A stretch of DNA of 64,000 nt from Methanocella sp. (GTDB lineage: Archaea > Thermoproteota > Bathyarchaeia > Bathyarchaeales > Bathycorpusculaceae): positions 1 to 64,000 of the forward strand of contig JBLNCY010000010.1 of assembly GCA_050261115.1 (NCBI GenBank). The letters are read 5' to 3'. The position numbers and the translations under genes were made by a program. Positions 4,588 to 62,325 of the stretch are shown in pieces; position 1 is the first letter of the stretch; every line of letters begins with the position of its first letter. A model generated the notes under the pieces. That model saw only the letters and a program-made list of their open reading frames with translations, had not been told where the DNA came from and searched no databases.

Positions 4588-4627
4588 GGTTCAACCCAAG
4601 GTGGCTCTATTATAAGGGTAGGGGTCT
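4588..4627 (+). repeat. Dispersed ~40-bp element, copy 1 (degenerate)
   Basis: GGTTCAACCCAAGGTGGCTCTATTATAAGGGTAGGGGTCT; aligns with copies at 20468, 51802 and 62283. Confidence 0.75.
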
Positions 4628-4631
4628 ATCC

Positions 4632-5387
4632 TCAGAGCAACATAGACGACTCAACACTAGCATCAGGCGCCTCTAGCAGTTTCTTAAGAGTCAAACAATT
4701 CCTTGGTGGTGCGTTGGCGTTGTAGTCGTTGTTGAAATAGCATAGGACTTTTTTGGCGTGGGCTGCCTTGATTTGCTTGGCCCATGCGTTTAGTTCGCTG
4801 TCGGGGTAGTTGTGTTTGTACCAGCCGTTTTTCCCATGAAGCCTCAAATAAACTGCTTCGCCCGATTTGATTAGGTCAGCAGGGAGCCCAGACGCCGATA
4901 CACTGCAGAAAACCAACCCGCGCCGCTCAAGGAAACAATAAACTTCGCTGTCCCACCAGCTGCTATGCCTAAACTCCAACACATTCATCACCGACGAGTC
5001 AAGTTGGCTGGCTATGGTTTCCAGCAGCACCATATCCTTGTGCAGCATGGGAGGCAGTTGGAAGAGGACGCTGAGGAGTTTTTCTTTGAGGAGTTTGGCG
5101 AGTTTGTACATGTTGGCGGTGTACTGCTGAGTGTTGTGGAACTTGTGGAGGTGGGTTATGATGCGGTTGGCTTTTAGGGTGAAAGTAAAGTTCTGAGGTG
5201 TCTTGTTATACCAGCCCAAAAGAAGCTCTGGGCGAGGATACCGATAAAACGTGCTATTAACTTCCAAGGAGCTGAAGAACTGAGTGTAATAGTTTAGCCA
5301 CTTACTCTTGGCGAGGTCTTCGGGATAAAATTTACCTCTCCAGTGATTATAGTAGAAGCCTGAGCAACCAAAAAAGTACGCAGTCAA
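4632..5387 (-). CDS. DUF72 family protein
   Basis: GCSGFYYNHWRGKFYP, EVNSTFY, LFQLPP, EFRHSSW, YLRLHG and YFNND motifs. Confidence 0.9.
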   Translation of the reverse strand: MTAYFFGCSGFYYNHWRGKFYPEDLAKSKWLNYYTQFFSSLEVNSTFYRYPRPELLLGWYNKTPQNFTFTLKANRIITHLHKFHNTQQYTANMYKLAKLLKEKLLSVLFQLPPMLHKDMVLLETIASQLDSSVMNVLEFRHSSWWDSEVYCFLERRGLVFCSVSASGLPADLIKSGEAVYLRLHGKNGWYKHNYPDSELNAWAKQIKAAHAKKVLCYFNNDYNANAPPRNCLTLKKLLEAPDASVESSMLL

Positions 5388-6170
5388 CTAGATCAACTGC
5401 AGATGAGCCCTTATACGCATCTCAATCACATCCACCCGCTTAGGTCGCGTGAGGACGTAGTGTATGGCGTCGGCGATGTCTTCGGCCTTAAGCTGCCTAA
5501 GCTGCGCCTGTTTTCGTCGCTGCTGCTCAGGCGATAGCCCATTCATGTCAGTGCCCACCTCGCCCGGTTCAATCAAGGTGACCCTGATGCCTAGCTGGTT
5601 GACTTCTTTTCGGAGCGCCGCAGAGAATCCCTCCACCCCCGACTTAGTAGCCACATACACGGAGCTGCCAGCTTCACGGGTTACGGCGCTCATGGAACCC
5701 ACGATTACAATGTGGCCTTGACCTTTTTGCTTCATGCGTGCAACCGCTTCATGTGCCACTTGCATGTAGCCTAGCAGGTTTGTTTTAACGATGTATTCTT
5801 GCTCCTCAAGCGATGTTTCCGCAACTGCGTCGGCGCCCAATGCAGCGTTGTTGATTAAGATGTCGACGCCGCCTAGTTGTTGGTCTGCGATTTGGAAGAC
5901 CCTCTCGATGTCTTGCTGTTTTGAGGTGTCGGCGGTTAATCCGATGGCGCTGCCCACTTTTCGTATGTCTGCTAATGCGTCGTTTAGTTCGGTTTGACCT
6001 CTGCCAAAGACCAAAAGCCTTGCCCCCTTGGAGGCTAACAGTATTGCTGTGGCACGTCCTATGCCTGTGGTTCCACCCGTTACCATGACGGCTTTGCCCT
6101 CCAGCCGCGTTTCCTCGGTTTCTCGGCTCTGCGGCGTTGTTAGACTGAGTGAACTTGACAAACACTTCAC
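5388..6170 (-). CDS. Short-chain dehydrogenase/reductase
   Basis: TGGTTGIG, NNA and YVATK motifs. True start probably TTG at ~6161 after AGGTGA. Confidence 0.92.
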   Translation of the reverse strand: MKCLSSSLSLTTPQSRETEETRLEGKAVMVTGGTTGIGRATAILLASKGARLLVFGRGQTELNDALADIRKVGSAIGLTADTSKQQDIERVFQIADQQLGGVDILINNAALGADAVAETSLEEQEYIVKTNLLGYMQVAHEAVARMKQKGQGHIVIVGSMSAVTREAGSSVYVATKSGVEGFSAALRKEVNQLGIRVTLIEPGEVGTDMNGLSPEQQRRKQAQLRQLKAEDIADAIHYVLTRPKRVDVIEMRIRAHLQLI

Positions 6171-6332
6171 CTAAACGCTATGGGTTTAGGGCGGGGCTCG
6201 TTTAATATCGATTTGTGGCAACGACGCTACAGCAACATTTCACTTTTACCCACCCCTCCCCGACATGGGCGTGTTGCTTGGGCAGCCGCCTTAAAAGCAA
6301 ACCACACTTAACTTAGCCTCCGATGAACAGGT

Positions 6333-6536
6333 ATGACCCAAACTGAAGCTATAGTTGAAGAAGATTTGCTGGTATCTTTGACGTTCCACAATTTTTCAGC
6401 TGATATGCTAAAAGAATTCGCCCAAAAAATCGTCCGACCCTACTTTAGGGGCAACATGAACAAGGCCATTCGGTGCTTAATGGAGAAAGCCATAGCCGAA
6501 GAAACCCTACTCCAACACGCCACTAAACGCACCTGA
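6333..6536 (+). CDS. Small ribbon-helix-helix-like protein
   Basis: 67 aa with beta-strand/helix/helix pattern (NMNKAIRCLMEKAI). TATA-like CTTAAAA upstream. Confidence 0.6.
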   Translation: MTQTEAIVEEDLLVSLTFHNFSADMLKEFAQKIVRPYFRGNMNKAIRCLMEKAIAEETLLQHATKRT

Positions 6537-6605
6537 CCTGATGTTATCTGCGTTTTGGGTGTAATATCTATATTGTATGTTGATGCCTTATCTTTCTGAT
6601 TTAAC

Positions 6606-7595
6606 TTGGCTGGCCTCCTCGATCCCCTAACAGTCAAAGACATAGCGTTGCGTAATCGGATAGTGATGCCTCCGATGCAGTCGGGCCGCGCCTCTTTCCA
6701 GGGCGAAGTTACCACACGCCTAATCAACTTTTATGTTCGGCGTTCGGCTGCGGTAGGGTTACCCATCGTTGAGCACGCGTATGTTTCGCCTCTGGGTAAG
6801 ATTGGCCCCAAACAACTGGGAATCTTTGATGACTCCCTTGTGTGTGGTTTTGAGAGGCTTGCGTCAGCTATTCACTCGGTCGGTGCACCCGCAATCGTGC
6901 AAATTAGCCATGCGGGAGCTGTGGCGACCAAGAAGGTAATCGGGGAGATGCCTGTTGGTCCTTCGCCGCGTGAGAAGTCCCGGATGCTTGAAAAAGAGGA
7001 GCTCATGCAACTGATTGAGGATTTTGCTGCGGCAACTGAACGGGCTGTGAAGGCTGGCTTTGATGGTGTGGAGCTTCATGGCGCCCATGGCTATTTGCTT
7101 AATCAGTTTTTTACGCCGCTGCTTAACAAGCGTACGGACGAGTTTGGGGGTTCATTGGAGAACCGCATGCGTTTCCCATTGATGGTTACCGAGCGGGTGC
7201 GTCGGTGTCTTGGTGGGGATCGGTTGTTGCTTTATCGGCTGGGTGCGGATGACTTGGCGCCTATGGGTGCTCATGTTGAGGATGCGGTTGTTTTTGCGTT
7301 AAGGCTGCAGGCGGCTGGCGTGGATGTACTTGATGTTTCTGGCGGCATGTGTGGGGCTTACCCTAAGCAGCTTGCAGGGATAAGTGGCTATTTTGTTCCT
7401 CAGGCGTATGCTGTTAAGCAGGCGGTTAGGGTGCCGGTTATCGGTGTCGGTGGAATCAAAGATCCCCAATATGCGGATCGGCTGGTGGCTGAGGGGAAGG
7501 TCGATTTGGTGGCAGTTGGCCGCGCTTTGTTACATAATAATCTCTGGGCTCACAAAGCCATCGAAGCCCTAGCCCCCGGCGGGTGTCGTTGCTGA
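6606..7595 (+). CDS. NADH:flavin oxidoreductase (Old Yellow Enzyme family)
   Basis: RNRIVMPPM, GFDGVELHGAHGYLLNQF and NKRTDEFGGSLENR. Confidence 0.95.
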   Translation: MAGLLDPLTVKDIALRNRIVMPPMQSGRASFQGEVTTRLINFYVRRSAAVGLPIVEHAYVSPLGKIGPKQLGIFDDSLVCGFERLASAIHSVGAPAIVQISHAGAVATKKVIGEMPVGPSPREKSRMLEKEELMQLIEDFAAATERAVKAGFDGVELHGAHGYLLNQFFTPLLNKRTDEFGGSLENRMRFPLMVTERVRRCLGGDRLLLYRLGADDLAPMGAHVEDAVVFALRLQAAGVDVLDVSGGMCGAYPKQLAGISGYFVPQAYAVKQAVRVPVIGVGGIKDPQYADRLVAEGKVDLVAVGRALLHNNLWAHKAIEALAPGGCRC

Positions 7596-7655
7596 AACCT
7601 ACACGCACATCATTATAGGATTTCCCTGCCGTATCTGCTTCTGTCAGGTGAAAAC

Positions 7656-7799
7656 TTGCCTAACCAGAAACTTTCAAAACTAGAGCTCTACATCGAAATC
7701 CTAAGCTCACTAGAGAAGCTAGGCAGACCAGACCTCATAACTATCCAGCGGCAGACAAAAATCGAACAGGCAATCCCTGTAAGGACGGGTTCTCTCTGA
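7656..7799 (+). pseudogene. Truncated winged-helix regulator (47 aa)
   Basis: AGGTGA SD and TTG start. MPNQKLSKLELYIEILSSL resembles the N-terminus of the wHTH at 51142 (RGKLDIVAEIL), but stops before the recognition helix and wing. Confidence 0.5.
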
Positions 7800-7832
7800 A
7801 ATCCAACAATTATCAGTAAAAAGGGAAAAAGC

Positions 7833-8336
7833 CTATACTATGTATCTGTCTGTTTTTTCGAAGTCGCGTACAATCTCCAGGCCACGTTTCTGAGTGGGCA
7901 CTGGCAGTGTGGGCAGGTCTTTTAGCAGCGTCCAGGGGGATTTGCGGGCAAGCACTGTTGCGATGTGTGTCTCGCCGAAACAGCGCTTAGCCACCTCTAC
8001 CACTTCCTGTCGTACGCCGATTTCTGACATTTGGCCTAACGCGTGGAGGTATTCGTGTAGTAGCAAGTTGTAGATTAGGGCGTTAACGGTGGGTCTATCG
8101 GCTACTTTTGCTTCTACAACATCAACAAGCGCCCGATTGAGAACAATGTTGTTGGTGCCAACTGGGTAATATGCGCCTAACCCAAGCGGCAAATCATCCA
8201 GAAACAGCATCATACGGTTACGTCGCTTGCCTAGCGCGTATTCTGCCGTTCGCTGAACAATCACCCAGACCTCGGCATAGCTGCGTGCCTTATCTAATTC
8301 AGCGCCAAATTGGGTGCTACTATAATTGATGCTCAA
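7833..8336 (-). CDS. Zincin-like metallopeptidase domain protein
   Basis: LLHEYLHALG HExxH motif; LGAYY strand. Confidence 0.75.
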   Translation of the reverse strand: MSINYSSTQFGAELDKARSYAEVWVIVQRTAEYALGKRRNRMMLFLDDLPLGLGAYYPVGTNNIVLNRALVDVVEAKVADRPTVNALIYNLLLHEYLHALGQMSEIGVRQEVVEVAKRCFGETHIATVLARKSPWTLLKDLPTLPVPTQKRGLEIVRDFEKTDRYIV

Positions 8337-13443: not shown

Positions 13444-16248
13444 ATGGTTGAAAAATCGTTCCCAGCAGAAGCTTACCAACTGCCATTCTTTAAGCAGGAA
13501 GGCTTCACGCGCAAGCGTTGCCAGAAATGCGGCGAATACTTTTGGACGCAAAACCAAACGCAGGAAACCTGTAACGAATCCGGCTCCGACGAATGCGGAT
13601 GCTACACTTTCCTTGGCAACCCTCCGACAAAAAAGAAGTATACTTTGCCAGAGATGCGAGAGGCATTCTTGTCCTTCTTTGAACAGAACGGGCATACACG
13701 CATAAAACCCTACCCAGTCGTGGCAAGATGGCGCAAAGACATCTACCTTACCCACGCATCCATCATCGACTTCCAGCCCTACGTTACTGAGGGTATCGCG
13801 CCACCACCCGCCAACCCACTTGTCATAAGCCAACCCTCCATTAGACTAACTGACATAGCCAACACTGGCCCAACTTTTGGGCGTCACCTAACCATATTTG
13901 AGATGGGCGGCGCCCACGCATTCAACTACCCTGATAAGGAAATCTACTGGAAAGACGACACCGTACGGTTCCACCAACGCTTCTGCACCGAAGTGCTGGG
14001 CATCCCTGGAGATGCAGTCACCTATAAGGAAAGCGTTTGGGCTGGCGGAGGAAATGCCGGTCCGGCCGTGGAATGCATCGTCGGTGGCTTAGAGGTGGGC
14101 ACGTTGGTTTTCATGCAGTACAAGGTTGTGGGTGAGGAATTCATAGAGTTGCCCATTCGTACGGTCGACACCGGCTATGGCATCGACCGCTTCACCTGGA
14201 TAAGCCAAGGTGTGCCGAGCCTGTTCCAAGCAATCTACGGAGACTTAATGGATAAAGTCTTGTCTATGGCGGGCCTAACAGACATCGACAACGACTTCCT
14301 TAGCCGAGTAGCCCGATACTCAGGCCTAGTAAGTGTCGATAAACGCGCAAACCGCATGGTAGCCCGCAAACGCGTCTCCCAATTGACGGGCATCGACCTT
14401 GACATCCTCGAAAAGACACTGGTCCCAATAGAGAACGCATGGGCCGTCGCAGACCACACCAAAACCCTAAGCTTTATGCTCTCAGAGGGAGTTGTGCCCT
14501 CCAACATCCAAGAAGGCTACCTCGCAAGACTACTCTTCAGACGCGTCTACCGCCTCATGCGCACACTCAACATGCGACCCGACGATCTCTACACAATCAT
14601 CGACTTACAAGCCAACTACTGGCAAAAAGACTTCCCACACATAAAAGAGATGCAAAACGAAATCATCGAAATGCTCAAAGTCGAAGAAGAAAAATTCAAA
14701 GACACCCTCCAACGCGGCGAAAGCCTGGTAAAACGCATATCCGCTGATCTCAAAGCGAAAGGCTCAGGCAAGCTCTCACAAGACACCCTGGCTGAACTTT
14801 ACGACTCACACGGCTTACCTCCCGAAATCGTTAAGCAAGCCGCAGAAAAGGAAGGCGTCGAGGTCGAGGTACCTGAGAACTTTTACGCTTTAGTTGCGGG
14901 CCGTCATATGGCAGCGCAGAAACCCGTCGAGGAGGAAGAGGTCAAAGTAGAGAAAGCACTCGAAGTTGAAGCTGAGAAGCTTCCCGCAACTGAGCCCCTC
15001 TATTACGCTGATGTGTATAGGCGTGAGTTTGACGCTAAAGTGCAGAAAGTCATAGGCGACTCTTATGTGGTTTTGGATGGAACATGCTTCTACCCTGAAG
15101 GCGGCGGTCAACCCAACGATTTAGGCTGGCTAATAAGCGGCAACGACCGCTATGAGGTGGTGGCGGTGCACAAAATCGGCAAGGTTATCGTACATACACT
15201 CAAAACCCCCGCCAAATTCCAAGAAGGAAGCACTGTTCATGGCGTTATTGACTGGGAGCGACGCTACTCACTCATGAAAGCTCACACCGTAACCCACCTT
15301 ATCAACGGAGCAGCCCGCCGCGTCCTAGGTGAACACGTTTGGCAATCGGGTACACAAAAAGGCCTAGAAACCTCGCGACTCGACATCACACACTACCGCA
15401 GACTAACCCAAGACGAAATTTTCCAAATAGAAACCCTCGCAAACCAAGCCATCCAAGCAGACCTTAAAATCGAAACCACTTGGTACCCACGCAACGAAGC
15501 AGAAAGCCGCTATGGCTTCCGGCTCTATCAGGGCGGTGCCGTTCCCGGCAAAGACATTCGCGTCGTCAAAACTGGCGATTGGGATGTTGAGGCATGTGCA
15601 GGAACCCACCTCGGCAGCACCCGCGAAGTAGGCTTTGTAAAAATCGTCTACACTGAACGCGTGCAAGACGGCGTTGAACGTCTCGGCTACGCTGTAGGCC
15701 CAAAAGCGCTCAAGGCAGTGCAGGACCAAGAGGCGCTACTTAGCAGGGTATCGGGGGTTCTTAATGCGCCAGTTGACAAGTTGGATAAGACCGTTGAGAA
15801 ATTCATGCGGGACTACAAGGAACTGCAATCCGAAAAACGGCGCTTAATTAAGGAACTCGCCGAGAAGGAAAGCGCAGCCATAACCCAAACCGCAGCCGCA
15901 GAAACGCAATTTGAGGGCGTCACCATCGTAAAACGCGACTTCGGCGACAGCATCGATGTTAACCGTATGGTTCAAACAGCCACAGAGGTCATTAAACACA
16001 ACGACACAGCAGTAACCCTCTATTTTGGCGCTGATGGCAAAACCTGCCGACTTATGGTCATGGCAGGCGAAGGAGCCACCAAAAAAGGCGTCAACGCTGG
16101 AGCCATCGTCAAAGAGGTCGCTCCCATTATGGGTGGCGGTGGAGGCGGAAGACCCAACTTTGCTCAAGGCGGCGGAACTAAGTGCGAAAAACTCGCCGAA
16201 ACCGTTGCTGCAGCAGAATCAGCGGTCAAGAAACAGCTTAAACCTTAA
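13444..16248 (+). CDS. alaS: Alanine--tRNA ligase, archaeal type
   Basis: N-terminal CxxC ribbon; VVARWR; ASIIDFQP; VDTGYG; editing HTVTH and CAGTH; GGGGGRPNFAQGGG. Confidence 0.98.
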   Translation: MVEKSFPAEAYQLPFFKQEGFTRKRCQKCGEYFWTQNQTQETCNESGSDECGCYTFLGNPPTKKKYTLPEMREAFLSFFEQNGHTRIKPYPVVARWRKDIYLTHASIIDFQPYVTEGIAPPPANPLVISQPSIRLTDIANTGPTFGRHLTIFEMGGAHAFNYPDKEIYWKDDTVRFHQRFCTEVLGIPGDAVTYKESVWAGGGNAGPAVECIVGGLEVGTLVFMQYKVVGEEFIELPIRTVDTGYGIDRFTWISQGVPSLFQAIYGDLMDKVLSMAGLTDIDNDFLSRVARYSGLVSVDKRANRMVARKRVSQLTGIDLDILEKTLVPIENAWAVADHTKTLSFMLSEGVVPSNIQEGYLARLLFRRVYRLMRTLNMRPDDLYTIIDLQANYWQKDFPHIKEMQNEIIEMLKVEEEKFKDTLQRGESLVKRISADLKAKGSGKLSQDTLAELYDSHGLPPEIVKQAAEKEGVEVEVPENFYALVAGRHMAAQKPVEEEEVKVEKALEVEAEKLPATEPLYYADVYRREFDAKVQKVIGDSYVVLDGTCFYPEGGGQPNDLGWLISGNDRYEVVAVHKIGKVIVHTLKTPAKFQEGSTVHGVIDWERRYSLMKAHTVTHLINGAARRVLGEHVWQSGTQKGLETSRLDITHYRRLTQDEIFQIETLANQAIQADLKIETTWYPRNEAESRYGFRLYQGGAVPGKDIRVVKTGDWDVEACAGTHLGSTREVGFVKIVYTERVQDGVERLGYAVGPKALKAVQDQEALLSRVSGVLNAPVDKLDKTVEKFMRDYKELQSEKRRLIKELAEKESAAITQTAAAETQFEGVTIVKRDFGDSIDVNRMVQTATEVIKHNDTAVTLYFGADGKTCRLMVMAGEGATKKGVNAGAIVKEVAPIMGGGGGGRPNFAQGGGTKCEKLAETVAAAESAVKKQLKP

Positions 16249-16305
16249 TTTTTCTTTTTTGTTTAGGGTTGATTTTTATATCTGCATTAGCTTGGTGTAC
16301 GGGCG

Positions 16306-16635
16306 ATGGCGATGGATCCGTTTAAGAAAGTTTTCTTTGTTGCTTTGGCTGTTTCGCTTGTTGCAATGGGGTTTGTTGCGTATATTGCGGCAGATGCGCT
16401 GGCGTTTGGACGGATTCCGGATTCTGAGTCAGGGGTTGTGGAGGCTAAGGGACCTGTTATGGACAAGCAGGGCGCGAGCTATTTTGTTTCTTTGGATACT
16501 GGTAAGACGCTCTATATTGAGAGTAACAGTACATTGTATGAAGAGTTGGCGGTAGGTTCTTCTTACAGTTTTACGTGTCGTATAGTGTTTTTGGCTGATA
16601 TTATTGTGATTGATAGCGCTGAATTGCAGCCATGA
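16306..16635 (+). CDS. Membrane-anchored hypothetical protein (OB-fold-like)
   Basis: N-terminal TM helix and beta-rich remainder. Confidence 0.6.
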   Translation: MAMDPFKKVFFVALAVSLVAMGFVAYIAADALAFGRIPDSESGVVEAKGPVMDKQGASYFVSLDTGKTLYIESNSTLYEELAVGSSYSFTCRIVFLADIIVIDSAELQP

Positions 16636-17262: not shown

Positions 17263-17832
17263 ATGGCAACTGAAAATAAAGAACAAAAAAATAAAGAAAC
17301 ATCCCCAGAAACAAAAACTCAACCAGAATGCACGAACCCCGTCAATGAAGACGCCGCCGAGGACTTCCAAAAGCTTCTCGAATCCGAAAAACGGCGCTCC
17401 CAAGACTACCTAACAAGGCTTCAGTATTTACAGGCAGACTACGAGAATATTAAAAAACGCTTTGAGCGAGAAAAAGAGCAAATACGCCTCTTCAGCAGCG
17501 AGCGAATCGTAACAGAGCTTCTTGATGTTGTTGATGAATTAGAGTTAGCCATAAAAGTAGCTAAGGCAGCGGAAAATCCCCAGCAAGCGCTAATCGACGG
17601 CGTTGAAATGACCCTAAAAAAGCTAAGAAAGGTTCTTGAGCAGGAAGGCGTCTGCCTAATAGAAGCTAGTGCAGGAAAACCTTTCGATCCCAGTTGTCAT
17701 GATGCGATCGCCGCTGAATGCCGCGACGACGTGAAAGAATGCACTGTTATTGAAGAAATCCGCAAGGGCTACCTGATGCGGAGAAAAGTATTACGACCAG
17801 CTATTGTTCGGGTAGCTAAACCATCAAAGTAA
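17263..17832 (+). CDS. grpE: Nucleotide exchange factor GrpE
   Basis: [19 protein letters not shown] and [12 protein letters not shown]. Confidence 0.95.
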
Positions 17833-19879: not shown

Positions 19880-20398
19880 CTATTTTTTGCTTGGGACTTT
19901 GGTTATTATGTGTTGGCAATCCACGTGTAGCGGAACTGTCGGGTAAACGGCTGCTCGTAAACCGTAATTCCTGTACATGTTGTTCTGGATATCCGTTATC
20001 TTGTGTCTTTTTCCGACGATGAGTCGTTGGCAATCGGGGTGTTGGTCATAGTTGTTGTATGGTACATAGCACTCTGTTTCACCCAACGAAAGCAGGTAAT
20101 CACCATATCCTAACGTGAAGATTTTGCTGATTTCGCCCTTTAGCATCCGTAGTTGCCACCCTACATTCTGACGGAGGTTGGGAGGCGGGTTGATTTCTGA
20201 GCAGCAGCGGGTGTGAGCAAATTTGAGGTCTATTCGTCCCGTGAAGTAGTCGTGGAGAATTATTCTAAAGTTCTTCTTGCACCAAATCGTCAATTCACCG
20301 ACATAATCAAATCCTTCGTCATCTAAGCGGTTGATTATGAATGGAATGGTTTCTTGGTTTATCATTGAGCCTATGTCGTTGAAACTGGTTGGCTTCAT
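19880..20398 (-). CDS. Hypothetical protein with Cys/His motif resembling the phage MuF/minor head protein C-terminus
   Basis: ECY..HPDCQ..PTVPLHVDCQH; compare the PPxHxNCRC motif. Confidence 0.55.
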   Translation of the reverse strand: MKPTSFNDIGSMINQETIPFIINRLDDEGFDYVGELTIWCKKNFRIILHDYFTGRIDLKFAHTRCCSEINPPPNLRQNVGWQLRMLKGEISKIFTLGYGDYLLSLGETECYVPYNNYDQHPDCQRLIVGKRHKITDIQNNMYRNYGLRAAVYPTVPLHVDCQHIITKVPSKK

Positions 20399-20467
20399 CT
20401 GTGTTCATGTTTAGTTGTTGGTTGCGTCTTTAAAGTTTAGTTCTGTGGTCTGTCTTGCTCTGTGGAG

Positions 20468-20507
20468 GGATCCTCTCCCTTATATAGAGTCAACTTTGGG
20501 TTCAACT
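20468..20507 (-). repeat. Dispersed ~40-bp element, copy 2 (inverted)
   Basis: Reverse complement AGTTGAACCCAAAGTTGACTCTATATAAGGGAGAGGATCC; 25/29 identical to copy 3. Confidence 0.85.
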
Positions 20508-20716
20508 AAGGCTTGCGAGCATACAGAGCGTTTATGAACTTTGTTGCTCTCTGCCTGTTTGTGTGCTGATGCAAGCGCTGGGTTTTAGTTACGGGAATTG
20601 GTGGGGATGTGTGATTAGTTCTATACTATCACAAATGTAATTCTCCCAGTTTGGTCATTCATTACAAGAAACAAGCCTGTGCAACGGTTTGAAAACTGAG
20701 TAGACTGGTTTTAAGG

Positions 20717-32187: not shown

Positions 32188-33828
32188 TTATTTTTTCCCT
32201 TGTTTCTTACAGGTATTTGAAATTGTTAGTATTATCGTAGGCATGGTGAAGATGCTAAATACTCTTGTGTATTTTGGTGAACCGGCTTTTCGTATGTCTT
32301 CAACGTTTCCGCCGGCCCTGAGGTATCCCTCTATGAAAGCCTCTGCGATGGCTTCTGCCTTAAGGTTGCTTTCGAAGGGTTGTAAATAGTGCCCGCAGTA
32401 ATACAAAAAGACCGCAATATCCCACGCTCTGTCACCACCCTGCTGGGCCTGCTCAAAATCTATTAGGAAAACTGTGCCGTCTGGCTTTACTAATACGTTA
32501 TCTGGTTTGGTATCGCCTAAAACTACATGTTGGTTGTGCACCAGCGCAAGAGTTTGGCCCACCTGCGCCACGATCCCTAAAACTTTGGCGTTTTCGGCTT
32601 CGTCGTTTCCATTTCCGAATTGTTTTATTTGGTTGCTTAAGCTTTCGCCTTCTATATACTCCATGAAAACCAATCGCTCGGCATTACTTGCATAGAGTAT
32701 TTTAGGTACATTGAAGCCGTTGCCATAGAGTAATTCGCTTATGGCGCACTCTTTTGCCAGTCTGGCCTGGCCTGAGACAGAAAAAGACCGCGCTCCAAAA
32801 GACCACAGCGACAATGGGAACCATTTAAAGCCAGACCAATCCTTGAACCGCTTGGCTAACACTTTTCTTTTACCGGCGGTAATCAGGTATACGTCGTTTA
32901 GCATGCCGCCGATTGGTTCCACTTCCACCTCTTGGCTTTGGTCTCTTAACAGGAGTCTTTGTGCATAGCCTTTGATGTCGATTTTGTCGGATAAAGAAAC
33001 CAAGCCCTCGGCGGTTGGGAAAAACACGTATTTTTGGGGGTCAACGAAGCGGCAAGGTTGATCCTGTTGGCGTAACCAATTGATTTTCTGGGTCTTTAGG
33101 AAGGCTCTGGCGTTCTGGCTTACAATACTCATTAATTGAGGAACGACCCCAAACAGCGAGGTAAATAGGGTTCGGGGCATGGTTTTTGCAAGGTTAATTA
33201 TGCGTTTCTTAGGGTTCTGGCAGCTCTCGATGAATTCTTTTGTAATGTAGACATAGCCGTCTTGTTGACGGATTTTATGTTCTGCTTCGAGTTGCTTTAG
33301 CGCTGTAATGTACCCTTGTAGGCTTTTGTCCTCGTTCTGTATTAGGCAACTCGTTAGGTCCGCGACCTCGTAATTTAGTAGTGGAAACACCCTGATGCGA
33401 CTCGAAAAGACTTCATACATGAAGTATTGAGGGAGAATCCGTATGCGTTGAGCAAGTTCTGGAAAGTTTATTACTAGGTTTTCAAGAATTTCAACAATTA
33501 GACGCTGTTTTAGTTCTCTTTCCTTCTCCTGAAGATACTGTCCACCTTCAAAAGCAAAGTACGGAAAAACCAGTTTGCCTGCTATGGCTTCGCCCAGCAA
33601 CCCCCGATCTATATCACGCTCAAAAACCCACTTGTCAACCGCGAAAAAGAAGACAGGTTTGCCCCTGATAAGCTTTAGGTAGCTTAGCAGGCGAGGGGGG
33701 AAGTCATGGAGGATTATCATGACCTCTTTTATCATTCGCTGGTTGGCGGGTCTTTTGGAGTAATCATCCACTTCGGCGATGGCTGCGATTTCTGATTGTC
33801 CAGCAATGTGCCTGGCGAATTCTAGCAT
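32188..33828 (-). CDS. Degenerate nucleotidyltransferase-like domain fused to an APH/RIO-like kinase
   Basis: C-terminal GGMLNDVY, AKRF, MEYIEG, GDTKPDN and IDFEQA. In-frame upstream extension to ATA at 33894. Confidence 0.75.
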   Translation of the reverse strand: MLEFARHIAGQSEIAAIAEVDDYSKRPANQRMIKEVMIILHDFPPRLLSYLKLIRGKPVFFFAVDKWVFERDIDRGLLGEAIAGKLVFPYFAFEGGQYLQEKERELKQRLIVEILENLVINFPELAQRIRILPQYFMYEVFSSRIRVFPLLNYEVADLTSCLIQNEDKSLQGYITALKQLEAEHKIRQQDGYVYITKEFIESCQNPKKRIINLAKTMPRTLFTSLFGVVPQLMSIVSQNARAFLKTQKINWLRQQDQPCRFVDPQKYVFFPTAEGLVSLSDKIDIKGYAQRLLLRDQSQEVEVEPIGGMLNDVYLITAGKRKVLAKRFKDWSGFKWFPLSLWSFGARSFSVSGQARLAKECAISELLYGNGFNVPKILYASNAERLVFMEYIEGESLSNQIKQFGNGNDEAENAKVLGIVAQVGQTLALVHNQHVVLGDTKPDNVLVKPDGTVFLIDFEQAQQGGDRAWDIAVFLYYCGHYLQPFESNLKAEAIAEAFIEGYLRAGGNVEDIRKAGSPKYTRVFSIFTMPTIILTISNTCKKQGKK

Positions 33829-51141: not shown

Positions 51142-51483
51142 TTGACAAGTAGCACTCAAGAGAAAGCTAAGCTGAAAGTTCACACACTTCAGCTCACACT
51201 GCTCAAGCACGCACATGAACATAGCAACATTAAGGGTCAACGAAGAGGTAAACTCGATATCGTCGCCGAGATTTTACTCTTCTGTGACCAGCAGAGAACA
51301 AAAACCAGCATAATGTACAACACCAACCTCAACTATAGCCAACTAAAAGGTCACATGAACTCCTTGATTGCACAAGGGTTACTTGCAAAACAAGCAAACA
51401 AGTACGTGACAACCACAAAAGGCTACCGCTTCCTGGAGCTGTTTGCGCAGTTAAACGATTTGATGGATGGCTTTACGCCTTAG
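51142..51483 (+). CDS. Winged-helix transcriptional regulator (archaeal HTH_45 type)
   Basis: RRGKLDIVAEIL, KTSIMYNTNLNY and YVTTTKG. Confidence 0.88.
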   Translation: MTSSTQEKAKLKVHTLQLTLLKHAHEHSNIKGQRRGKLDIVAEILLFCDQQRTKTSIMYNTNLNYSQLKGHMNSLIAQGLLAKQANKYVTTTKGYRFLELFAQLNDLMDGFTP

Positions 51484-51751
51484 ATGTCGCCTTTTGGTAG
51501 GCTGCTTTTAGTTCGCTGACGAAAGTATCCTCATCTTGGACTAGGCGCTGTTTTACTTTTCTCCATACAGCGGGGCAGTCGCTCTCTTCGCCGACGAGGC
51601 TTTGGATTATGCAGCCGATTTGTTTGCGGTTTTCTTTAGTTAGAGTAATGTCGGCTTTGGCTAATACAAGTCCCAAGTGACGCAGATAACAGGTCAAGTT
51701 TTCACCACCCCATCTATGCTTGTTGGGGTTTCTATAATTATCGATTGCCAT
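51473..51751 (-). CDS. Hypothetical protein
   Basis: TCYLRHL..CPAVWRKVK; 92 aa. Confidence 0.65.
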   Translation of the reverse strand: MAIDNYRNPNKHRWGGENLTCYLRHLGLVLAKADITLTKENRKQIGCIIQSLVGEESDCPAVWRKVKQRLVQDEDTFVSELKAAYQKATSKA

Positions 51752-51801
51752 TTATGTTTGGCTTACACTTCTGCAGCAGTCTACCGCCTATTTCAAGCGC
51801 T

Positions 51802-51839
51802 GGTTCAACCCGAGGTTGACTCTATATAAGAGGGGGTCT
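51802..51839 (+). repeat. Dispersed ~40-bp element, copy 3 (closest to consensus)
   Basis: GGTTCAACCCGAGGTTGACTCTATATAAGAGGGGGTCT with dyad TCAACC-CGA-GGTTGA. Confidence 0.88.
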
Positions 51840-51863
51840 CAGTGAGAGCAACATAAGAAAGCC

Positions 51864-56805: not shown

Positions 56806-56856
56806 AGTCGCTGATAATCAGTGGCGCTATTTCTACATTTATATCCGATCACGCGG

Positions 56857-57093: not shown

Positions 57094-57094
57094 T

Positions 57095-58432: not shown

Positions 58433-59809
58433 TTAGGTTAGAAAGCGTTTTACGGCTTCATAGAGTACGCTTGTGCCCCAAACTAGGTTCTCGATGGTTA
58501 TCCGTTCGTCTATGCCATGCATGCGTTTCTCGAGTAAATGGACGGGTTCGTCAGGGCGCATTGGGTGAAAGCCATAGGCTATGCTTCCCATGTCACGGAA
58601 GAAGTGTGAGTCGGTGCCGCCGGTTATCATGCTGGGGGCGATGCCGCAGTCTGGCTCTAATTCGCGTAGTACGCTGGTGATGGCGCTGTATAGTGGGGTG
58701 TTGGTGGTGGATTCGTTGCCGTCGTGCATCTGGAGGATTTCGAAGCTTAACTTGTCTAAGCCGACCTCTTTGAGTAGGTCTTTGATTGTTGCTAGGGTTT
58801 CTTCTACGCTTTGGCCTGGTAGTACTCGGCAGTCAAATGTGACTTCGCATTCGGAGGGTATGATGTTTTCTTTGCATCCGCCGCTAGCTATAGTGGGAGT
58901 TATAGTTGTTCTTGTTCTCGGTCGGATTTCTTCTGCTAAGGGTTTGTCTTTTTTTGCGATTCTGTCAAGGATTTGGTCGCTTCCTTCGGGGTTATTTAGC
59001 AGGTCCGTGAGGTCTTCGCGGAGGTTGGGGTTTATGCGGGCTACTTCTGCTAGGTATTCTTTTAGTGTTGGTACGTAGACGGTTTGGGGTTTGTAGGCGT
59101 CTAGTTTAGCTATGACTTTGCTTATGCGTAGGATGGCGTTGTCGGCTGTGTTGGGCATAGAGCCGTGTCCAGGGGAGCCTTTTGCTTTGATTTTCAGCCA
59201 CAGAATCCCTTTTTCGGCGGTCTGGATGGGGTAGACGTTTACGTTGTTTTGGGGCATGGCTAAGCCGCCGCCCTCGTTTATGATGTAGGGGCACCAGACT
59301 TTGTCTTTGTGATGCTTTAGTAGCCATTCTGCGCCCTGTGCACCGCCTTTTTCTTCGTCTGCGGTTGCTGCGAGTACTATGTCGCCTTTTATGGGGATGT
59401 TATTTTTCTTGAGAAGTTTTAAGGTGAATACTTCGATTGCGGTCATGCCTTTCATGTCGTAGGCTCCTCGGCCATAGACGTAGCCGTCTTTTACTAAGCC
59501 ATCAAAGGGCGGAACGGACCATTCGGCGGGGTTGGCGGCGACTACGTCTAGGTGGGATAGTAGTAGGAGGTTGGGTTTTTCGCCTGTGCCTTTGAGTCGG
59601 GTTATTATGCTGCCTCGTCCGGGGCTAGATTCTAAGATTTCTGATTCGAAACCGTCTTTTGCTAGGTATTGGGCTAGGTATTTGGCTGCGGCGGTTTCGT
59701 TGCCGGGAGGGTTGGTTGTGTTTATACGTATTAATTCTGATAGGAATGTTGTAATGTCTGATTCAATTTCTTCCAATATTTTAATGGTCAAGATATGTCT
59801 GCTCCACAA
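58433..59809 (-). CDS. M20/M25/M40 metallopeptidase (ArgE/DapE-like)
   Basis: SHLDVV, GRGAYDMKG, DEE, GHGS, GGTD and HGIDERI. Confidence 0.93.
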   Translation of the reverse strand: MWSRHILTIKILEEIESDITTFLSELIRINTTNPPGNETAAAKYLAQYLAKDGFESEILESSPGRGSIITRLKGTGEKPNLLLLSHLDVVAANPAEWSVPPFDGLVKDGYVYGRGAYDMKGMTAIEVFTLKLLKKNNIPIKGDIVLAATADEEKGGAQGAEWLLKHHKDKVWCPYIINEGGGLAMPQNNVNVYPIQTAEKGILWLKIKAKGSPGHGSMPNTADNAILRISKVIAKLDAYKPQTVYVPTLKEYLAEVARINPNLREDLTDLLNNPEGSDQILDRIAKKDKPLAEEIRPRTRTTITPTIASGGCKENIIPSECEVTFDCRVLPGQSVEETLATIKDLLKEVGLDKLSFEILQMHDGNESTTNTPLYSAITSVLRELEPDCGIAPSMITGGTDSHFFRDMGSIAYGFHPMRPDEPVHLLEKRMHGIDERITIENLVWGTSVLYEAVKRFLT

Positions 59810-59940
59810 GTCTTTTATTTTATTTATTATTTCTTATCTTGTTGCTGATGCCTGCTGAATTAGGGTAGTTTTTTGATAATTAAACATGTAGGTTTAAATA
59901 GTATCGCAAAAATTGCTAATGAACAAAAAATATTCATGAG

Positions 59941-60465
59941 TTGAGTACTATGAAAGAGCTAAAACCAATTGACTACAAGATTCTGTTCGAGCTCATGAAA
60001 GACTCTCACAGAAGCGACCGCCAACTAGCTAAAGCCTTAGGAGTCTCTCAGCCAACGGTAACCCGAAGACGTGCCATGCTTGAAGAAAACTTTATCGAAG
60101 GTTACACTGTGATCCCCAAATTTGGCCAAATCGGGTTTGAGATTGCAGCCATCACTTTTCTTAAAAGTAAACTAAAGTATGAAACCGGCGAGGGTAGAGC
60201 AAAGGCATTACAGAAAATGAAAGAATGGTACATGAAGCAAACCAACGTCATTATGGTTATCGATGGCAGAGGTATGGGTTATGATGCATGCTGCATCTCT
60301 CTGCATGAAAACTTTGCTAGCTTCGCCGACTTTATTAGGGCACATGACTCAGAACTATCTGAATTTGTTGTTGAGAGCCAAACCTTTAATGCTGACCTTA
60401 AAGGCGGCATAGTCATAAAGCCCTTCCACCTCAAATACCTCGCCGCTTCTCAGAAACAGCAATAA
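59941..60465 (+). CDS. Lrp/AsnC family regulator
   Basis: DYKILFEL..RSDRQLAKALGVSQPTVTRR. Confidence 0.9.
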   Translation: MSTMKELKPIDYKILFELMKDSHRSDRQLAKALGVSQPTVTRRRAMLEENFIEGYTVIPKFGQIGFEIAAITFLKSKLKYETGEGRAKALQKMKEWYMKQTNVIMVIDGRGMGYDACCISLHENFASFADFIRAHDSELSEFVVESQTFNADLKGGIVIKPFHLKYLAASQKQQ

Positions 60466-60670
60466 GCCGCTTAAATCCCCATTATCCTTTTTTGTATTCT
60501 CATACCCATTGCTAAAGTGGTTTTTTTGGTTTAGGCTTGGTTTGAGCCTTTTTGGGTGTTTCTTGGGTAGCTTGGTTTCTCTACATTGGTCGCATCTACA
60601 GCCATAGCTAGCCAAAAAGTCGCTTTTGATACTATAAAATAAGATTAGATGTTAGAGGTATGTTGGGTGC

Positions 60671-61105
60671 TTATTTCTTTTTCCAGCTTTTGCCCCATTT
60701 AAAGAAGCTAGTAGGAGTTATCTTGATGATTGGGACATCATCCGTGTCTTTCCATCCACCCGCTTCTGTGCGGTACTCTGGGTACTTTTCTTTTAGAAGC
60801 TCATGTGCATAGCTGTATTCTTTGCCGCTGCTAAGTATCTCGGCTTCGCCTTGGATGCGGATGCCTCTAATGTTTGACCAGTTGTTTGGGTCGTAGTCGT
60901 CGATGACTAAGGATACTTGTGGGTTGGATTCGATGTGTTCTAGCTTGGGGGTATCTGGGTCGGATGCAAAGTAGAAGTAGACGCCGTCGAAGACTGGCCA
61001 GACTGGTCGCACTACGGGTTCGCAATCCTCCGTCGCTGTTGCTAGACGTCCTACTGGCAATTCGGAGATGAATGTTTTATCGGATTTGGATAGTTTTATT
61101 CCCAT
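60671..61105 (-). CDS. Pyridoxamine 5'-phosphate oxidase-like (FMN/F420 split-barrel) protein
   Basis: GRLAT, PVW and KLEHIESNPQVSLVID. Confidence 0.88.
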   Translation of the reverse strand: MGIKLSKSDKTFISELPVGRLATATEDCEPVVRPVWPVFDGVYFYFASDPDTPKLEHIESNPQVSLVIDDYDPNNWSNIRGIRIQGEAEILSSGKEYSYAHELLKEKYPEYRTEAGGWKDTDDVPIIKITPTSFFKWGKSWKKK

Positions 61106-61249
61106 TTAACCACACACTGGGTTTTTGAACCTGTCTGAATAGTTTACAGGTCTTCCTTTTAAAACTTAATGCTTCAAAGAAACAGGGTTACGTGGCTGAG
61201 GAGCTGATGAAAAGCCGATGTTTTAGGCAGCAAGAAGAGGAGATAGTCG

Positions 61250-62020
61250 TTATTTCGGGTTAAAGTATTGTATCAGTAGGTCTTCCATGGAGTAGAATCC
61301 TTTTTCTCTACCCATGAGGTTGATTGCTGCGAACAATGCGCCGTTTCCAAAGGCTTCTCGCTGTATTGATTCATGAATTAACCTTACCGTCTGGTATGGG
61401 AAGCCGAAAATGATTTCATGGCGACCTACAATGCCGCCTGCCCTGACCGATTTTATATTTGCCTTAGGCAGATCCAATACTTCGGTTATTTTTATGGCCG
61501 TGCCAGAAGTCTCTTGTTTATTCTTGAAGTGCTCCTCGATGATTTCTATATCCGTGTAGGGTGCGATGTTTTTTAGGGTTTTAGCTGCTAGCATCAAAAA
61601 GTTTATTCCGATTGTTATGTTAGGTGACCATAGTACTCTTGTTTTTTGTGATAGTTCTTTTAAGTATTCGATTGTTTGTGGCGGGTATGCTGATATTGCA
61701 GTGACTATGGCTATGCCTCTTTTAGCTGCTTCTTCCCCGTAATAATATATGGCCTCAGAACAGGAAAAATCTATTATGGCATCAACCGGGTGCTTGTCAA
61801 GTAATTGTTGGGGCGTCCATTCATCTTTTGGGCATATTAATCCTTGACAGCTTCCCGCTTCCTTTTCTCTTATGCCTAGAAACTCGGATACTGAACGGTG
61901 TTCTAAACACTTCGTTTTCCTAATTACCCAACAAAGGTAAACTCGCTCGTTTTGCAGAAGCACAGTTGCGACTGCTTTGCCAGCTCTACCAAATCCAAAA
62001 AGCCCTACTCTCATTTCCAA
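61250..62020 (-). CDS. dapB: 4-hydroxy-tetrahydrodipicolinate reductase-like protein
   Basis: GFGRAG, IDFS, SPNITIG, EEHFKNK..SGTA, RAGGIVGRH and REAFG.GA. Confidence 0.82.
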   Translation of the reverse strand: MEMRVGLFGFGRAGKAVATVLLQNERVYLCWVIRKTKCLEHRSVSEFLGIREKEAGSCQGLICPKDEWTPQQLLDKHPVDAIIDFSCSEAIYYYGEEAAKRGIAIVTAISAYPPQTIEYLKELSQKTRVLWSPNITIGINFLMLAAKTLKNIAPYTDIEIIEEHFKNKQETSGTAIKITEVLDLPKANIKSVRAGGIVGRHEIIFGFPYQTVRLIHESIQREAFGNGALFAAINLMGREKGFYSMEDLLIQYFNPK

Positions 62021-62282
62021 TCGACTGCTTTATACACCTGATATTTTTTAAATCTAGCGGATTCCAGCCATTAGCGCCCAAAGATACCAAGCATAGTATT
62101 CTTGAAGCACGTAAATTGCCTGTTAAACAAAATAAAGCAACGCTACGTCTTTATTACTACAACATTTCCATGCACTGAAGCGCTCTTTCAACTATTCATG
62201 ACGTTATTCTCATAGCACTATAAGCCACCAAAATAGCGGGAAAGAGTACTTTTTCGAGGGTTTATGGGTGCCTTTAAGATAG

Positions 62283-62325
62283 GGTTTAACCCGTGGTTGA
62301 CTCTATATGTAATGGAGGGGTGTCT
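62283..62325 (+). repeat. Dispersed ~40-bp element, copy 4
   Basis: GGTTTAACCCGTGGTTGACTCTATATGTAATGGAGGGGTGTCT; 24/26 identical to copy 3 in the core. Confidence 0.85.

Follow-up and report, generated by a model that had tools for sequence, protein, structure and literature searches.

Four copies of a short repeat are dispersed over the window, by which we mean the whole 64,000-nucleotide stretch of archaeal DNA analysed here, and their recurrence raises the question of what kind of element they represent. The preliminary description of this DNA considered a chromosome replication or organisation site, an operator-plus-TATA module of a global regulon, and a recombination site or mobile-element scar. 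It also predicted that many further copies would be found across the genome.

Copies in the window

All four copies were confirmed on the window sequence at the positions, on the strands and with the consensus originally assigned to them, and the identities claimed for copies 2 and 3 (25/29) and for copies 3 and 4 (24/26) hold on alignment. Two window copies match a gap-free 28-nt consensus with three or fewer mismatches, a search that misses the indel-bearing copies 1 and 4, versus no match in each of 100 dinucleotide-preserving shuffles, and the four copies are far above chance expectation. The proposed unit of dyad, TATATAA and G-string is real, but the conserved unit is longer, spanning ~70 nt from TTTCAAG to CAGAGCAACAGA, and the 9-bp palindrome GGTTSAACC is a better-supported symmetric unit than the AAC-N5-GTT dyad first suggested. 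All four copies carry this palindromic upstream module, hereafter called type A.

Copy 1 (4579..4642, plus strand; previously 4588-4627) comprises the palindrome GGTTCAACC (4588-4596), GGTGGCTC (4600-4607), a TATA box (TATTATAA, 4608-4615), the G-run GGGTAGGGG (4616-4624) and the start-site block CAGAGCAACA (4633-4642). The last of these overlaps a minus-strand DUF72 gene (4632..5387) at its stop codon (4632-4634), and the 3′ end of this gene meets the copy head-on in a convergent arrangement; the earlier statement that all copies are intergenic therefore needs amendment for the conserved 3′ part of copy 1. Copy 2 (20453..20518, minus strand; previously 20468-20507) runs from a TCGCAAG box (20512-20518) through AGTTGAACC (20499-20507), AGTTGACTC (20487-20495), TATATAA (20480-20486) and the G-run GGGAGAGGA (20471-20479) to CAGAGCAAGA (20453-20462). 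It aims at a 172-aa ORF without a Pfam match (19880-20398, minus strand), the start of which lies 54 nt beyond.

Copy 3 (51791..51853, plus strand; previously 51802-51839) begins with TTTCAAG (51791-51797), followed by the palindrome GGTTCAACC (51802-51810), GGTTGACTC (51814-51822), TATATAA (51823-51829), the G-run (51830-51836) and GAGAGCAACA (51844-51853), and it stands head-on to the 3′ end of a 594-aa phosphorylase-like gene (PF00343; 51864..53648, minus strand; stop codon 51864-51866). Copy 4 (62273..62337, plus strand; previously 62283-62325), the most diverged of the four, consists of TTTAAG (62273-62278), GGTTTAACC (62283-62291), GGTTGACTC (62295-62303), TATATGTAA (62304-62312), TGGAGGGG (62313-62320) and TAGCATAGCA (62327-62336). 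A co-oriented tRNA-Ile(GAT) gene (62498..62575, plus strand) lies 159 nt downstream, preceded by its own promoter region (..CCGTTATTCTTATAAACCC..), which is near-identical in the related genome G115. Three copies had been placed in or beside accessory patches near tRNA genes, but only copy 4 is near a tRNA gene and accessory patches are not evident; the genes adjoining the copies (DUF72, cupin, GH3 glycosidase, phosphorylase-like and DapB) are ordinary conserved genes.

A modular family and its distribution

A profile built from the four copies found 58 sites in the 2.15-Mb genome at E<=1e-3, and iteration with nhmmer raised the number to 114 copies at the same threshold (96 at E<=1e-6), of which 58 are on the plus strand and 56 on the minus strand, with strands alternating along contig C10. 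Together with pattern searches that recovered copies in relatives, these results bear out the prediction of many more sites. They support the view that the repeat family is dispersed and undescribed, and our literature search found no paper on Bathyarchaeia repeats.

Each cassette is ordered as an optional upstream module, a TATA box (TATATATAA in this genome, CTTTATATAA in the sister species), a G-run (GGGAGGGGG) and a block that we call D1 (CAGAGCAACAGA). Type A modules, present in 67 copies, combine the palindrome GGTTSAACC with GGTTGAC, and GTTNAAC occurs in 55 of these 67 (centre G in 28, C in 24, A in two and T in one). The type B module of the other 47 copies is an A/C-rich stretch of ~150 nt that has neither dyad nor palindrome. 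Simple regular expressions recover the G-run in 88/114 copies and the D1 motif in 85/114, and, of the 60 copies in which the distance from the end of the TATA box to D1 is measurable, 48 have 19 or 20 nt. The D side alone has a conserved block at start-site distance, and alternative start-site blocks, D2 and D3, are present in other species. Conservation ends directly after D1, and the sequences farther downstream are dissimilar (two weak blastn pairs among 114). The modules are interchangeable, with upstream and downstream types combined in various ways, and tandem units are also found.

The family is old, since type B copies share no more than 60% pairwise identity in the upstream module outside the core (flanks, 25-33%). 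Core positions in these copies are nearly invariant and, at orthologous sites elsewhere, the core is kept while the surrounding spacer is unalignable, a pattern that suggests a core under constraint. The repeats had no Rfam match at E<=1, and RNAalifold gave no consensus fold on either strand (0 pairs or ~0 kcal/mol), so a family of structured small RNA genes was excluded.

Among 120 genomes of the genus, eight carry 77, 144, 107, 55, 45, 35, 15 and 8 pattern matches, versus 0-4 in the other 112. G046 and G115 both have 88% aRF1 identity to G000, yet they hold 3 and 144 matches, respectively. The 3′ flank of the aRF1 gene carries clear cassettes in G000, G115, G061 and G050 and, read by eye, possible degenerate G-run relics in G007, G046, G133 and G132; no cassette was seen at this flank in G069. 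The site of copy 1 is likewise occupied in G115 and G061, and that of copy 3 holds a cassette with another start-block type in G050. A separate observation concerns one IMG/VR 'provirus' contig, not evidently viral, in which three tandem related units lie beside PKD-domain and ABC-ATPase-like genes.

Orientation and conservation at gene 3′ ends

The flank orientation classes of 58 copies are near-random (17/13/12/11), and a co-oriented downstream feature is faced by 25 of the 55 copies that have one. Judged from sequence, the cassettes are not ordinary promoters of neighbouring protein genes, because their orientation to those genes is close to random. Where cassettes do precede the tRNA-Ile gene or the adenylate kinase gene (the latter in G000, G050 and G115), a conserved promoter of the gene's own lies between cassette and gene.

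Conservation of arrangement was evaluated with the flank genes of 114 loci in G115, G069, G133 and G067, chosen by exact 13-mer (25-30 per genome), by requiring the same arrangement at the G000 orthologue. Under crude codon-usage ORF calls, and among species that are kin and so not independent samples, the head-on arrangement at a 3′ end was conserved in 17/53 cases against a base rate of 68/1890 (3.6%; binomial p 2.6e-12). The corresponding values are 6/31 for an upstream module facing a 3′ end (p 1.4e-4), 3/33 for an upstream module facing a 5′ end (p 0.048) and 2/34 for the promoter position (p 0.23). Cassettes therefore recur at orthologous gene 3′ ends, mostly pointing into the gene. What is new here is that their conservation lies at these 3′ ends and not at the promoter position. 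In G000 itself, the excess of head-on cassettes over the opposite orientation at 3′ ends is only mild (68 vs 50). As a side observation, T5 tracts in the 60 nt past the stop codon are nominally a little rarer in genes with a head-on cassette (8/30) than in controls (43% of 611).

The element is best explained as a self-contained cassette in the shape of an archaeal promoter that belongs to an old, modular, genus-wide repeat family. TBP and TFB would assemble on the TATA box plus G-run, and polymerase would initiate in the D1 block and then run outward. The type A palindrome with GGTTGAC could serve as the site of a dimeric regulator. Copies would have spread and been reshuffled by recombination among themselves, and they seem to be kept preferentially a few tens of bases past stop codons, mostly aimed back at the gene. 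Because of this placement and direction, the 3′ boundary of the gene would most likely be marked and insulated by what the cassette produces, either a short transcript (non-coding or antisense) or an initiation complex that faces the gene head-on. We tentatively prefer this reading, in which non-coding or antisense transcripts would start from a TBP/TFB-type cassette that marks gene 3′ boundaries; it is plausible from the sequence, if short of probable.

The TATA box is nearly symmetric, and the direction of the cassette consequently has to be read from indirect arguments. One of its flanks reads GGTTGACTC or TGAGTC, and the other is a C-run. One argument for direction is the conserved block at start-site distance, confined to the D side, and another is a D′-TATA-D chimera on contig C22, which is located between divergent adenylate kinase and PadR regulator genes. 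The public RNA data are assembled contigs, one of which, from an independent sample, spans this chimera with 0 differences. Contigs X8 (15517-16459) and X1 (15439-16256) on L001 cross its TATA core and have no boundary at the predicted starts, which could reflect read-through or DNA in the library.

Tolerance of insertions past stop codons might by itself explain why copies persist at 3′ ends. In a rival explanation the family is a selfish, non-autonomous repeat, MITE-like or BOX-like in its modularity, whose promoter is a look-alike and whose copies survive past gene 3′ ends where harm is small. We consider this unlikely, though much of the distribution fits it: occurrence in the genus is patchy (8-144 matches in eight of 120 genomes, 0-4 in 112), G046 and G115 have very unequal counts at equal aRF1 distance, orientation is near-random, modules are interchangeable with tandem units, and one chimeric pair fits recombination between copies. 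However, no target-site duplication is visible at the edges of 54 aligned type A copies, and no terminal inverted repeats were seen beyond a weak 10/16 match in the type B consensus noted by eye; the family was accordingly not assigned to the MITEs. The Y1 (IS200/RAYT) transposase PF01797 has no match in G000, G115, G069, G133, G067 or G061. Moreover, copies old enough to be 60% identical have a near-invariant core, and their presence at orthologous sites in several species speaks for constraint, or at a minimum for residence over a long time.

It is also possible, if doubtful, that TBP/TFB, or some other abundant DNA-binding protein, binds the TATA box and G-run with high affinity, and that the occupied site acts in either orientation, without productive transcription, as a roadblock, insulator or terminator to polymerases coming out of the upstream gene. 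Such a site would account for conservation at 3′ ends in both orientations (17/53 and 6/31), for the lack of a recognisable BRE beside a G+C-rich melting region, for RNA-library contigs that run over the TATA core, and for the nominally slightly lower frequency of T5 tracts after genes with head-on cassettes. Mere binding, however, leaves the fixed 19-20-nt spacing of D1 and the alternative blocks D2 and D3 unexplained, and we know of no such terminator mechanism described for archaea.

The three readings offered originally fare less well. An operator-plus-TATA module of a global regulon driving adjacent protein genes has the right anatomy, with an upstream palindrome whose centre flips between G (28) and C (24) as expected of a dimer site, a TATA box and a start-site block, and some copies do precede genes, such as copy 2 and the adenylate kinase cassettes. 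This reading is nonetheless very unlikely given the near-random orientation, with a co-oriented downstream feature in only 25/55, and a promoter arrangement conserved in only 2/34; neighbouring genes are functionally unrelated, each of the two downstream genes examined, tRNA-Ile and adenylate kinase, retains a promoter of its own, and the palindrome is missing from 47 copies. The idea of a target for site-specific recombination, comparable to dif, att or an integron core, draws its appeal from the mixed module combinations and from contig C22, where two chimeras 16.2 kb apart, U-TATA-U′ and D′-TATA-D, are the products expected of crossover between two directly oriented copies in the palindromic TATATATA core. 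The pair suggests inversion through the palindromic TATA core, but it is a single event among 114 copies, and the core flanks of normal copies are unlike each other, whereas recombinase-binding arms would be inverted repeats. Gene order upstream of adenylate kinase, compared for traces of this inversion, is different in every one of the five relatives examined and so bears on it in neither direction. No recombinase is linked to the family, Y1 transposase being the sole type searched, and with target duplications and convincing terminal repeats lacking and tRNA proximity confined to copy 4, a site-specific recombination site is highly improbable and a mobile-element scar is not supported. An Orc1/Cdc6 origin recognition box or chromosome-organisation site, suggested by the superficially ORB-like dyad beside a G-run, is scarcely conceivable, since ORBs are few and clustered around an AT-rich unwinding element beside orc1/cdc6 whereas the 114 copies are dispersed over both strands (58 and 56, alternating along C10), the dyad is absent from 47 of them, and only one lies within ~2.5 kb of either orc1/cdc6 gene (on C6 and C47), with no cluster.

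Relation to known elements

The promoter-shaped cassette resembles several known systems in part. Bacterial REP, BIME and REPIN elements are likewise short extragenic repeats that number in the hundreds, take either orientation, usually lie past gene 3′ ends and persist for a long time within a lineage. However, a REP is an imperfect palindrome that folds into a hairpin, and RAYT (Y1) transposases mobilise it, whereas the cassette has no consensus hairpin and the six element-rich genomes searched have no PF01797 match; the cassette was not placed among the REPs. Neisseria Correia and pneumococcal BOX elements are modular dispersed repeats containing promoter-like sequences, and they share with the cassettes interchangeable modules, tandem units and an internal promoter-like sequence. 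Neither the terminal inverted repeats nor the TA target duplication of Correia elements was seen in the cassettes.

In archaeal core promoters, transcription starts ~24-27 nt downstream of the TATA centre, and a purine- or A-rich BRE lies directly upstream. The cassette is similar in its sequence spacing, a conserved purine-rich block lying at a constant 19-20 nt, the usual start distance, from the TATA box. Unlike a core promoter of BRE, TATA and initiator, it has a G-run directly after the TATA box, and an A-rich BRE such as that of the native tRNA and adenylate kinase promoters (aaaGC/aaaCC plus TTTAWWTA) is absent from both TATA flanks. Its G+C-rich stretch from TATA to the predicted start would be unusual in a strong archaeal promoter.

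Class I and II intergenic repeats of halovirus HF2 (58 and 29 bp), as described by Russ, Pfeiffer and Dyall-Smith (2021; PMC8707807), carry AT-rich promoter motifs and have positions conserved among related genomes, and reporter-gene expression was obtained with each of the nine that were tested. Both they and the cassettes are short repeated intergenic units with promoter motifs at positions shared by relatives. The viral repeats as there described precede transcription units and have measured activity, whereas the cassettes are chromosomal, number 114, take any orientation, lie mostly past 3′ ends and are known from sequence. The putative mobile promoters described by Nijveen, Matus-Garcia and van Passel (2012; PMC3575422) are highly similar promoter-like sequences beside unrelated genes in one genome and its relatives, and similar promoter-like sequences adjoin unrelated genes here as well. 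As defined in that account they lie upstream of genes, whereas the cassette's promoter position is not conserved (2/34) and its 3′-end position is (17/53).

More speculatively, and with low probability in our estimation, the cassettes may define a class of gene boundary in some Bathyarchaeia. A head-on promoter cassette of TATA box, G-run, fixed start block and exchangeable regulator module, set a few tens of bases past the stop codon, would bring transcription to an end or insulate it, either through colliding polymerases or through a stable initiation complex, and would make 3′-antisense RNAs. Retention or loss of the system across whole lineages would go hand in hand with that of a trans-acting factor. 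If true, this would be a previously unrecognised class of gene-boundary element.

Anatomy and abundance of the cassette in the source genome

The four intergenic copies in the window (copies 1 to 4, at 4588-4627(+), 20468-20507(-), 51802-51839(+) and 62283-62325(+)) are present as described in the preliminary description, and their alignment reveals more shared sequence than was noted there. From 5ʹ to 3ʹ, the conserved unit comprises TTTCAAG, 3-5 nt, GGTTSAACC, 3 nt, GGTTGACTC, TATATATAA, GGGAGGGGG, a short variable spacer and CAGAGCAACAGA. A 28-nt gap-free consensus with no more than three mismatches recovers two copies in the window, whereas 100 shuffles yielded no match. When the entire source genome (G000; 2.15 Mb in 66 contigs, with the window corresponding to the initial 64 kb of contig C10) was searched with a profile of the four copies, 58 sites were obtained (E<=1e-3). 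Iteration of the profile increased this number to 114 sites, 96 of them at E<=1e-6, which are divided between the strands (58 + and 56 -). The expectation that many copies would exist genome-wide is thus borne out.

Two classes with a common core can be distinguished among these 114 copies. Type A (67 copies, among them all four from the window) carries a palindrome in its upstream module. The sequence GTTNAAC is present in 55 of the 67, and its central nucleotide is G in 28 copies, C in 24, A in two and T in one, a C/G flip that is as expected of a symmetric dimer site. In type B (47 copies), the palindrome is replaced by an A/C-rich upstream module of ~150 nt that closes with CTGCGGTTGYTGAGTC. 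The common core consists of a TATA box, a G-run and the block CAGAGCAACAGA, which we call D1.

The anatomy of the core is promoter-like and its spacing is fixed, with 19 or 20 nt separating the TATA box from the start of D1 in 48 of the 60 copies measurable by simple patterns. Judged from sequence, D1 occupies the position where an archaeal polymerase would start, and the D (downstream) side alone bears a conserved block at start-site distance. Conservation stops directly after D1, and an all-versus-all blastn comparison of the 400 nt located 3ʹ of the 114 copies yielded one or two weak pairs and no common downstream product. Sequence 3ʹ of the cassette is A/C-rich until ~+75 nt, but this was rejected as a cassette feature because it equals the general T-rich composition that follows stop codons, read on the other strand. 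The occurrence of CTTTATATAA in sister species was also dropped as a proof of direction, given that the reverse reading fits the TATA consensus equally well.

Type-B upstream modules exhibit 60% pairwise identity and their flanks 25-33%, whereas core positions are nearly invariant, which indicates an old family with a constrained core. Neighbouring spacer DNA has likewise diverged past alignment while the cassette core has remained nearly invariant. Either selection or homogenisation between copies could account for this constraint.

Patchy abundance and modular variation within the genus

All 120 genomes of the genus were surveyed with the 18-mer CTATATATAAGGGAGGGG, allowing up to two mismatches. 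As anticipated in the preliminary description, relatives carry copies: eight of the 120 genomes have 8-144 matches, namely G115 (144), G069 (107), the source genome (77), G133 (55), G067 (45), G061 (35), G050 (15) and G132 (8). The remaining 112 genomes have 0-4 matches each, and 90 have none. A reversed-pattern control gave 0-1 matches, and no 18-mer match was found in 16 genomes from other genera of the order.

As measured by the identity of release factor aRF1 to that of the source genome, the closest of these species is G050 (92%), followed by G115, G069 and G046 (88%), G007 (87%), G061 and G132 (81%) and G133 (79%). Despite their closeness, G046 and G007 have just three and four 18-mer matches, respectively, and therefore cassette load is not tied to distance from the source genome. 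Scarcity was confirmed in five poor genomes by a pattern combining the G-run and D1, which produced 4, 0, 1, 0 and 0 matches.

Other species also employ additional start blocks, D2 (TAGGTGCTCTGAGGTAGGTAG) and D3 (GAGACGTCGCGTGG), as well as tandem units located 54-90 nt apart, and the order of modules varies among species. Seven G115 loci (L064, L071, L076, L077, L082, L085 and L087, near position 1500) carry tandem pairs 54 nt apart in which a D1 unit precedes a D2 unit. In many cases, an A/C-rich module of ~110 nt comes after the pair and terminates in CAACCAGC...GCTGGTTGTTG; this module is similar to the type-B upstream module of the source genome. At the G067 and G069 loci L094-L123 and L154-L178, a TATA box and G-run precede GAGACGTCGCGTGG, which is often followed by a hairpin-like GCGGATACGG-NNN-CGTATGCGC and then by a second TATA/G-run unit. 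RNAalifold predicts no consensus fold for these hairpin-like units over 41 copies. At one of these loci (L094; G069:C3:930-3942), a co-oriented cassette resides ~1.2 kb ahead of the 23S rRNA gene, measured from its 5ʹ end.

Positional conservation favours gene 3ʹ ends

Based on our own crude codon-usage ORF calls, the four possible orientations of flanking genes are represented by 17, 13, 12 and 11 cases among 58 copies. Placement is therefore independent of neighbour orientation, which argues that the cassettes are not promoters of their neighbours. Copies 1 and 3 are aimed head-on, with the D side pointing back into the stop codon, at a DUF72 gene and a phosphorylase-like gene, respectively.

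Conservation of position was evaluated at 114 loci identified by an exact 13-mer in G115, G069, G133 and G067. For each locus, we took the nearest flanking ORF with an orthologue in the source genome (tblastn, at least 50% identity over at least 50 amino acids), leaving out ORFs that lack one, and scored whether a cassette resides within 600 nt of that orthologue in the same arrangement. The head-on arrangement at a gene 3ʹ end is retained in 17 of 53 cases (base rate 68/1890, binomial p 2.6e-12), compared with 6 of 31 for an upstream module facing a 3ʹ end (50/1890, p 1.4e-4), 3 of 33 for an upstream module facing a 5ʹ end (47/1890, p 0.048) and 2 of 34 for the promoter position, in which the D side faces a 5ʹ end (51/1890, p 0.23), although these p-values overstate the evidence because the compared species are kin. 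Cassettes are thus preferentially conserved at gene 3ʹ ends, mostly head-on. The earlier proposal of an operator-plus-TATA module of a global regulon is apt in anatomy alone, as the promoter position that it implies is conserved in just those 2 of 34 cases.

Inspection of single sites agrees with this result. The 3ʹ flank of the aRF1 gene holds an unambiguous cassette, oriented alike, in G000, G115, G061 and G050. By eye, possible degenerate G-run relics are discernible at this site in G007, G046, G133 and G132, and no cassette was seen in G069. The copy 1 site is occupied in G115 and G061 and unoccupied in G007, G069 and G050. At the copy 3 site, G050 likewise has a cassette, here of the D2 type and abutting the stop codon, and eight other species have none. 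The promoter-like copy 2 site is unoccupied in G069, the sole orthologue-bearing genome among five searched. The position of copy 4, 5ʹ of a tRNA-Ile gene, is common to G000 and G115, and this tRNA gene retains its own promoter region downstream of the cassette, nearly identical in G115.

Partner genes are unrelated housekeeping genes, including those for aRF1, PurE, ribosomal protein L38e, the ammonium transporter AmtB, an aquaporin and a MobA-like transferase, along with the DUF72 and phosphorylase-like genes. A T5 tract occurs within 60 nt of the stop codon in 8 of 30 genes with a head-on cassette versus 43% of 611 controls, a weak trend that gives a slight hint that a terminator may be replaced by the cassette at such sites.

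Several observations concern the neighbouring genes themselves. The DUF72 orthologue by the copy 1 site aligns as two abutting pieces in G115 (C17:14235-14976) and G050 (C116:1676-2396), and may be frameshifted or split in these genomes. One in-frame TAA is present in the G061 DUF72 orthologue, and another in the G069 orthologue of a 172-amino-acid ORF that resides 3ʹ of copy 2 (19880-20398, -). Neither this ORF nor a 92-amino-acid ORF by copy 3 (51473-51751, -) has a Pfam match, and the 172-amino-acid protein has an orthologue (72% identity) in G069 alone among five genomes searched.

Possible recombination, alternative readings and putative function

Two unusual cassettes are found 16.2 kb apart on contig C22 of the source genome, at 17451-17505 and 33660-33720 (15-70 and 16200-16275 of the extracted piece L001). 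The first, U-TATATATA-Uʹ, joins two upstream (U) modules back to back, whereas the second, Dʹ-TTATATATAA-D, joins two D modules. Crossover between two copies in direct orientation, within their palindromic TATA core, would be expected to yield such a pair by inversion. The Dʹ-TATA-D copy separates the divergently oriented genes for adenylate kinase and PadR, and its junction is covered without differences by a contig from the RNA library of an independent sample, so this structure is not an assembly artefact. In a synteny check of the inversion, the genes 5ʹ of adenylate kinase differed in all five relatives examined. The adenylate kinase gene has a separate promoter that is conserved across six species, and co-oriented cassettes are present further 5ʹ in G000, G050 and G115.

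The proposal of a recombination site or mobile-element scar is opposed by an alignment of 54 type-A copies, whose edges exhibit no target duplication. This finding also speaks against a classical MITE, and in type B the termini match in inverted orientation at no more than 10/16 positions, by eye. A REP/RAYT-like or IS200 partner was rejected after a search for the Y1 transposase family gave no matches in the six richest genomes, G000 among them. A dedicated TFB was discounted because TFIIB-domain counts (4-10 in rich versus 2-14 in poor genomes) do not track cassette load. A virus origin was also rejected: a strict composite pattern matched no IMG/VR contigs, and the 18-mer matched seven, five of which have one common unrelated terminator-like sequence. 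Another of the seven, a 30.6-kb contig labelled as a provirus (L042), carries three related units repeated in tandem every 80 nt at 1905-2115; they occupy the gap between convergent PKD-domain and ABC-ATPase-like genes, neighbours that are not evidently viral.

A structured or previously described RNA finds no support: Rfam searches of the window at the gathering threshold, and of 20 type-B loci and 20 loci of other species at E<=1, produced no match on the repeats, and RNAalifold gave no consensus fold on either strand for types B and D3. An apparent small ORF, a 22-codon frame in G067 and G069 units, was rejected because it lacks a conserved start codon, as judged by eye. The suggested replication site fails because just one of the 114 cassettes lies within ~2.5 kb of either orc1/cdc6 gene (on contigs C6 and C47) and every type-B copy lacks the dyad.

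We favour the reading that the cassettes belong among dispersed repeats that bear promoters and that they have a conserved, unexpected connection to the 3ʹ ends of genes, although their function is putative. The TATA box and G-run would recruit TBP and TFB, polymerase would start in D1, and the gene 3ʹ end could be delimited by the resulting short or antisense transcripts or by the bound complex. Three observations argue against such a promoter mechanism. Assembled contigs from four metatranscriptome runs covering C22:17440-37439, a stretch that carries no head-on 3ʹ-end cassette, yielded no starts, strands or joints, and RNA-library contigs among them run across the TATA core at the one informative site. 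In addition, neither side of the cassette TATA box resembles the A-rich BRE of the source genome, and the region that must melt is G+C-rich. Native tRNA promoters of this genome, examined in the 90 nt upstream of 41 tRNA genes, consist of aaaGC or aaaGG plus TTTAWWTA ~30-35 nt before the mature 5ʹ end, a motif usable as a reference promoter for the lineage. Metatranscriptome runs also place the organism in digester samples, where it is apparently active.

In genomic behaviour, the cassettes are similar to bacterial REP/BIME or BOX repeats, but they fail the defining tests of these elements. The nearest documented analogue is provided by the intergenic repeats of halovirus HF2, which bear promoters (PMC8707807). 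The concept of reused or mobile promoters is also close (PMC3575422). In the literature searched on promoter-like dispersed intergenic repeats of Bathyarchaeia and other archaea, we found no description of this family.

The manner in which archaea end transcription and insulate tightly packed genes is poorly understood, and no experimental work is known to address it in uncultured Bathyarchaeia. If selfish, the cassettes would still represent a new type of archaeal repeat, one for which no mobilising enzyme is known. They supply a concrete candidate, open to testing, for a system of gene boundaries or antisense transcription, and they provide a ready set of candidate promoters and a putative regulator site (GGTTSAACC) in a lineage lacking genetic tools.
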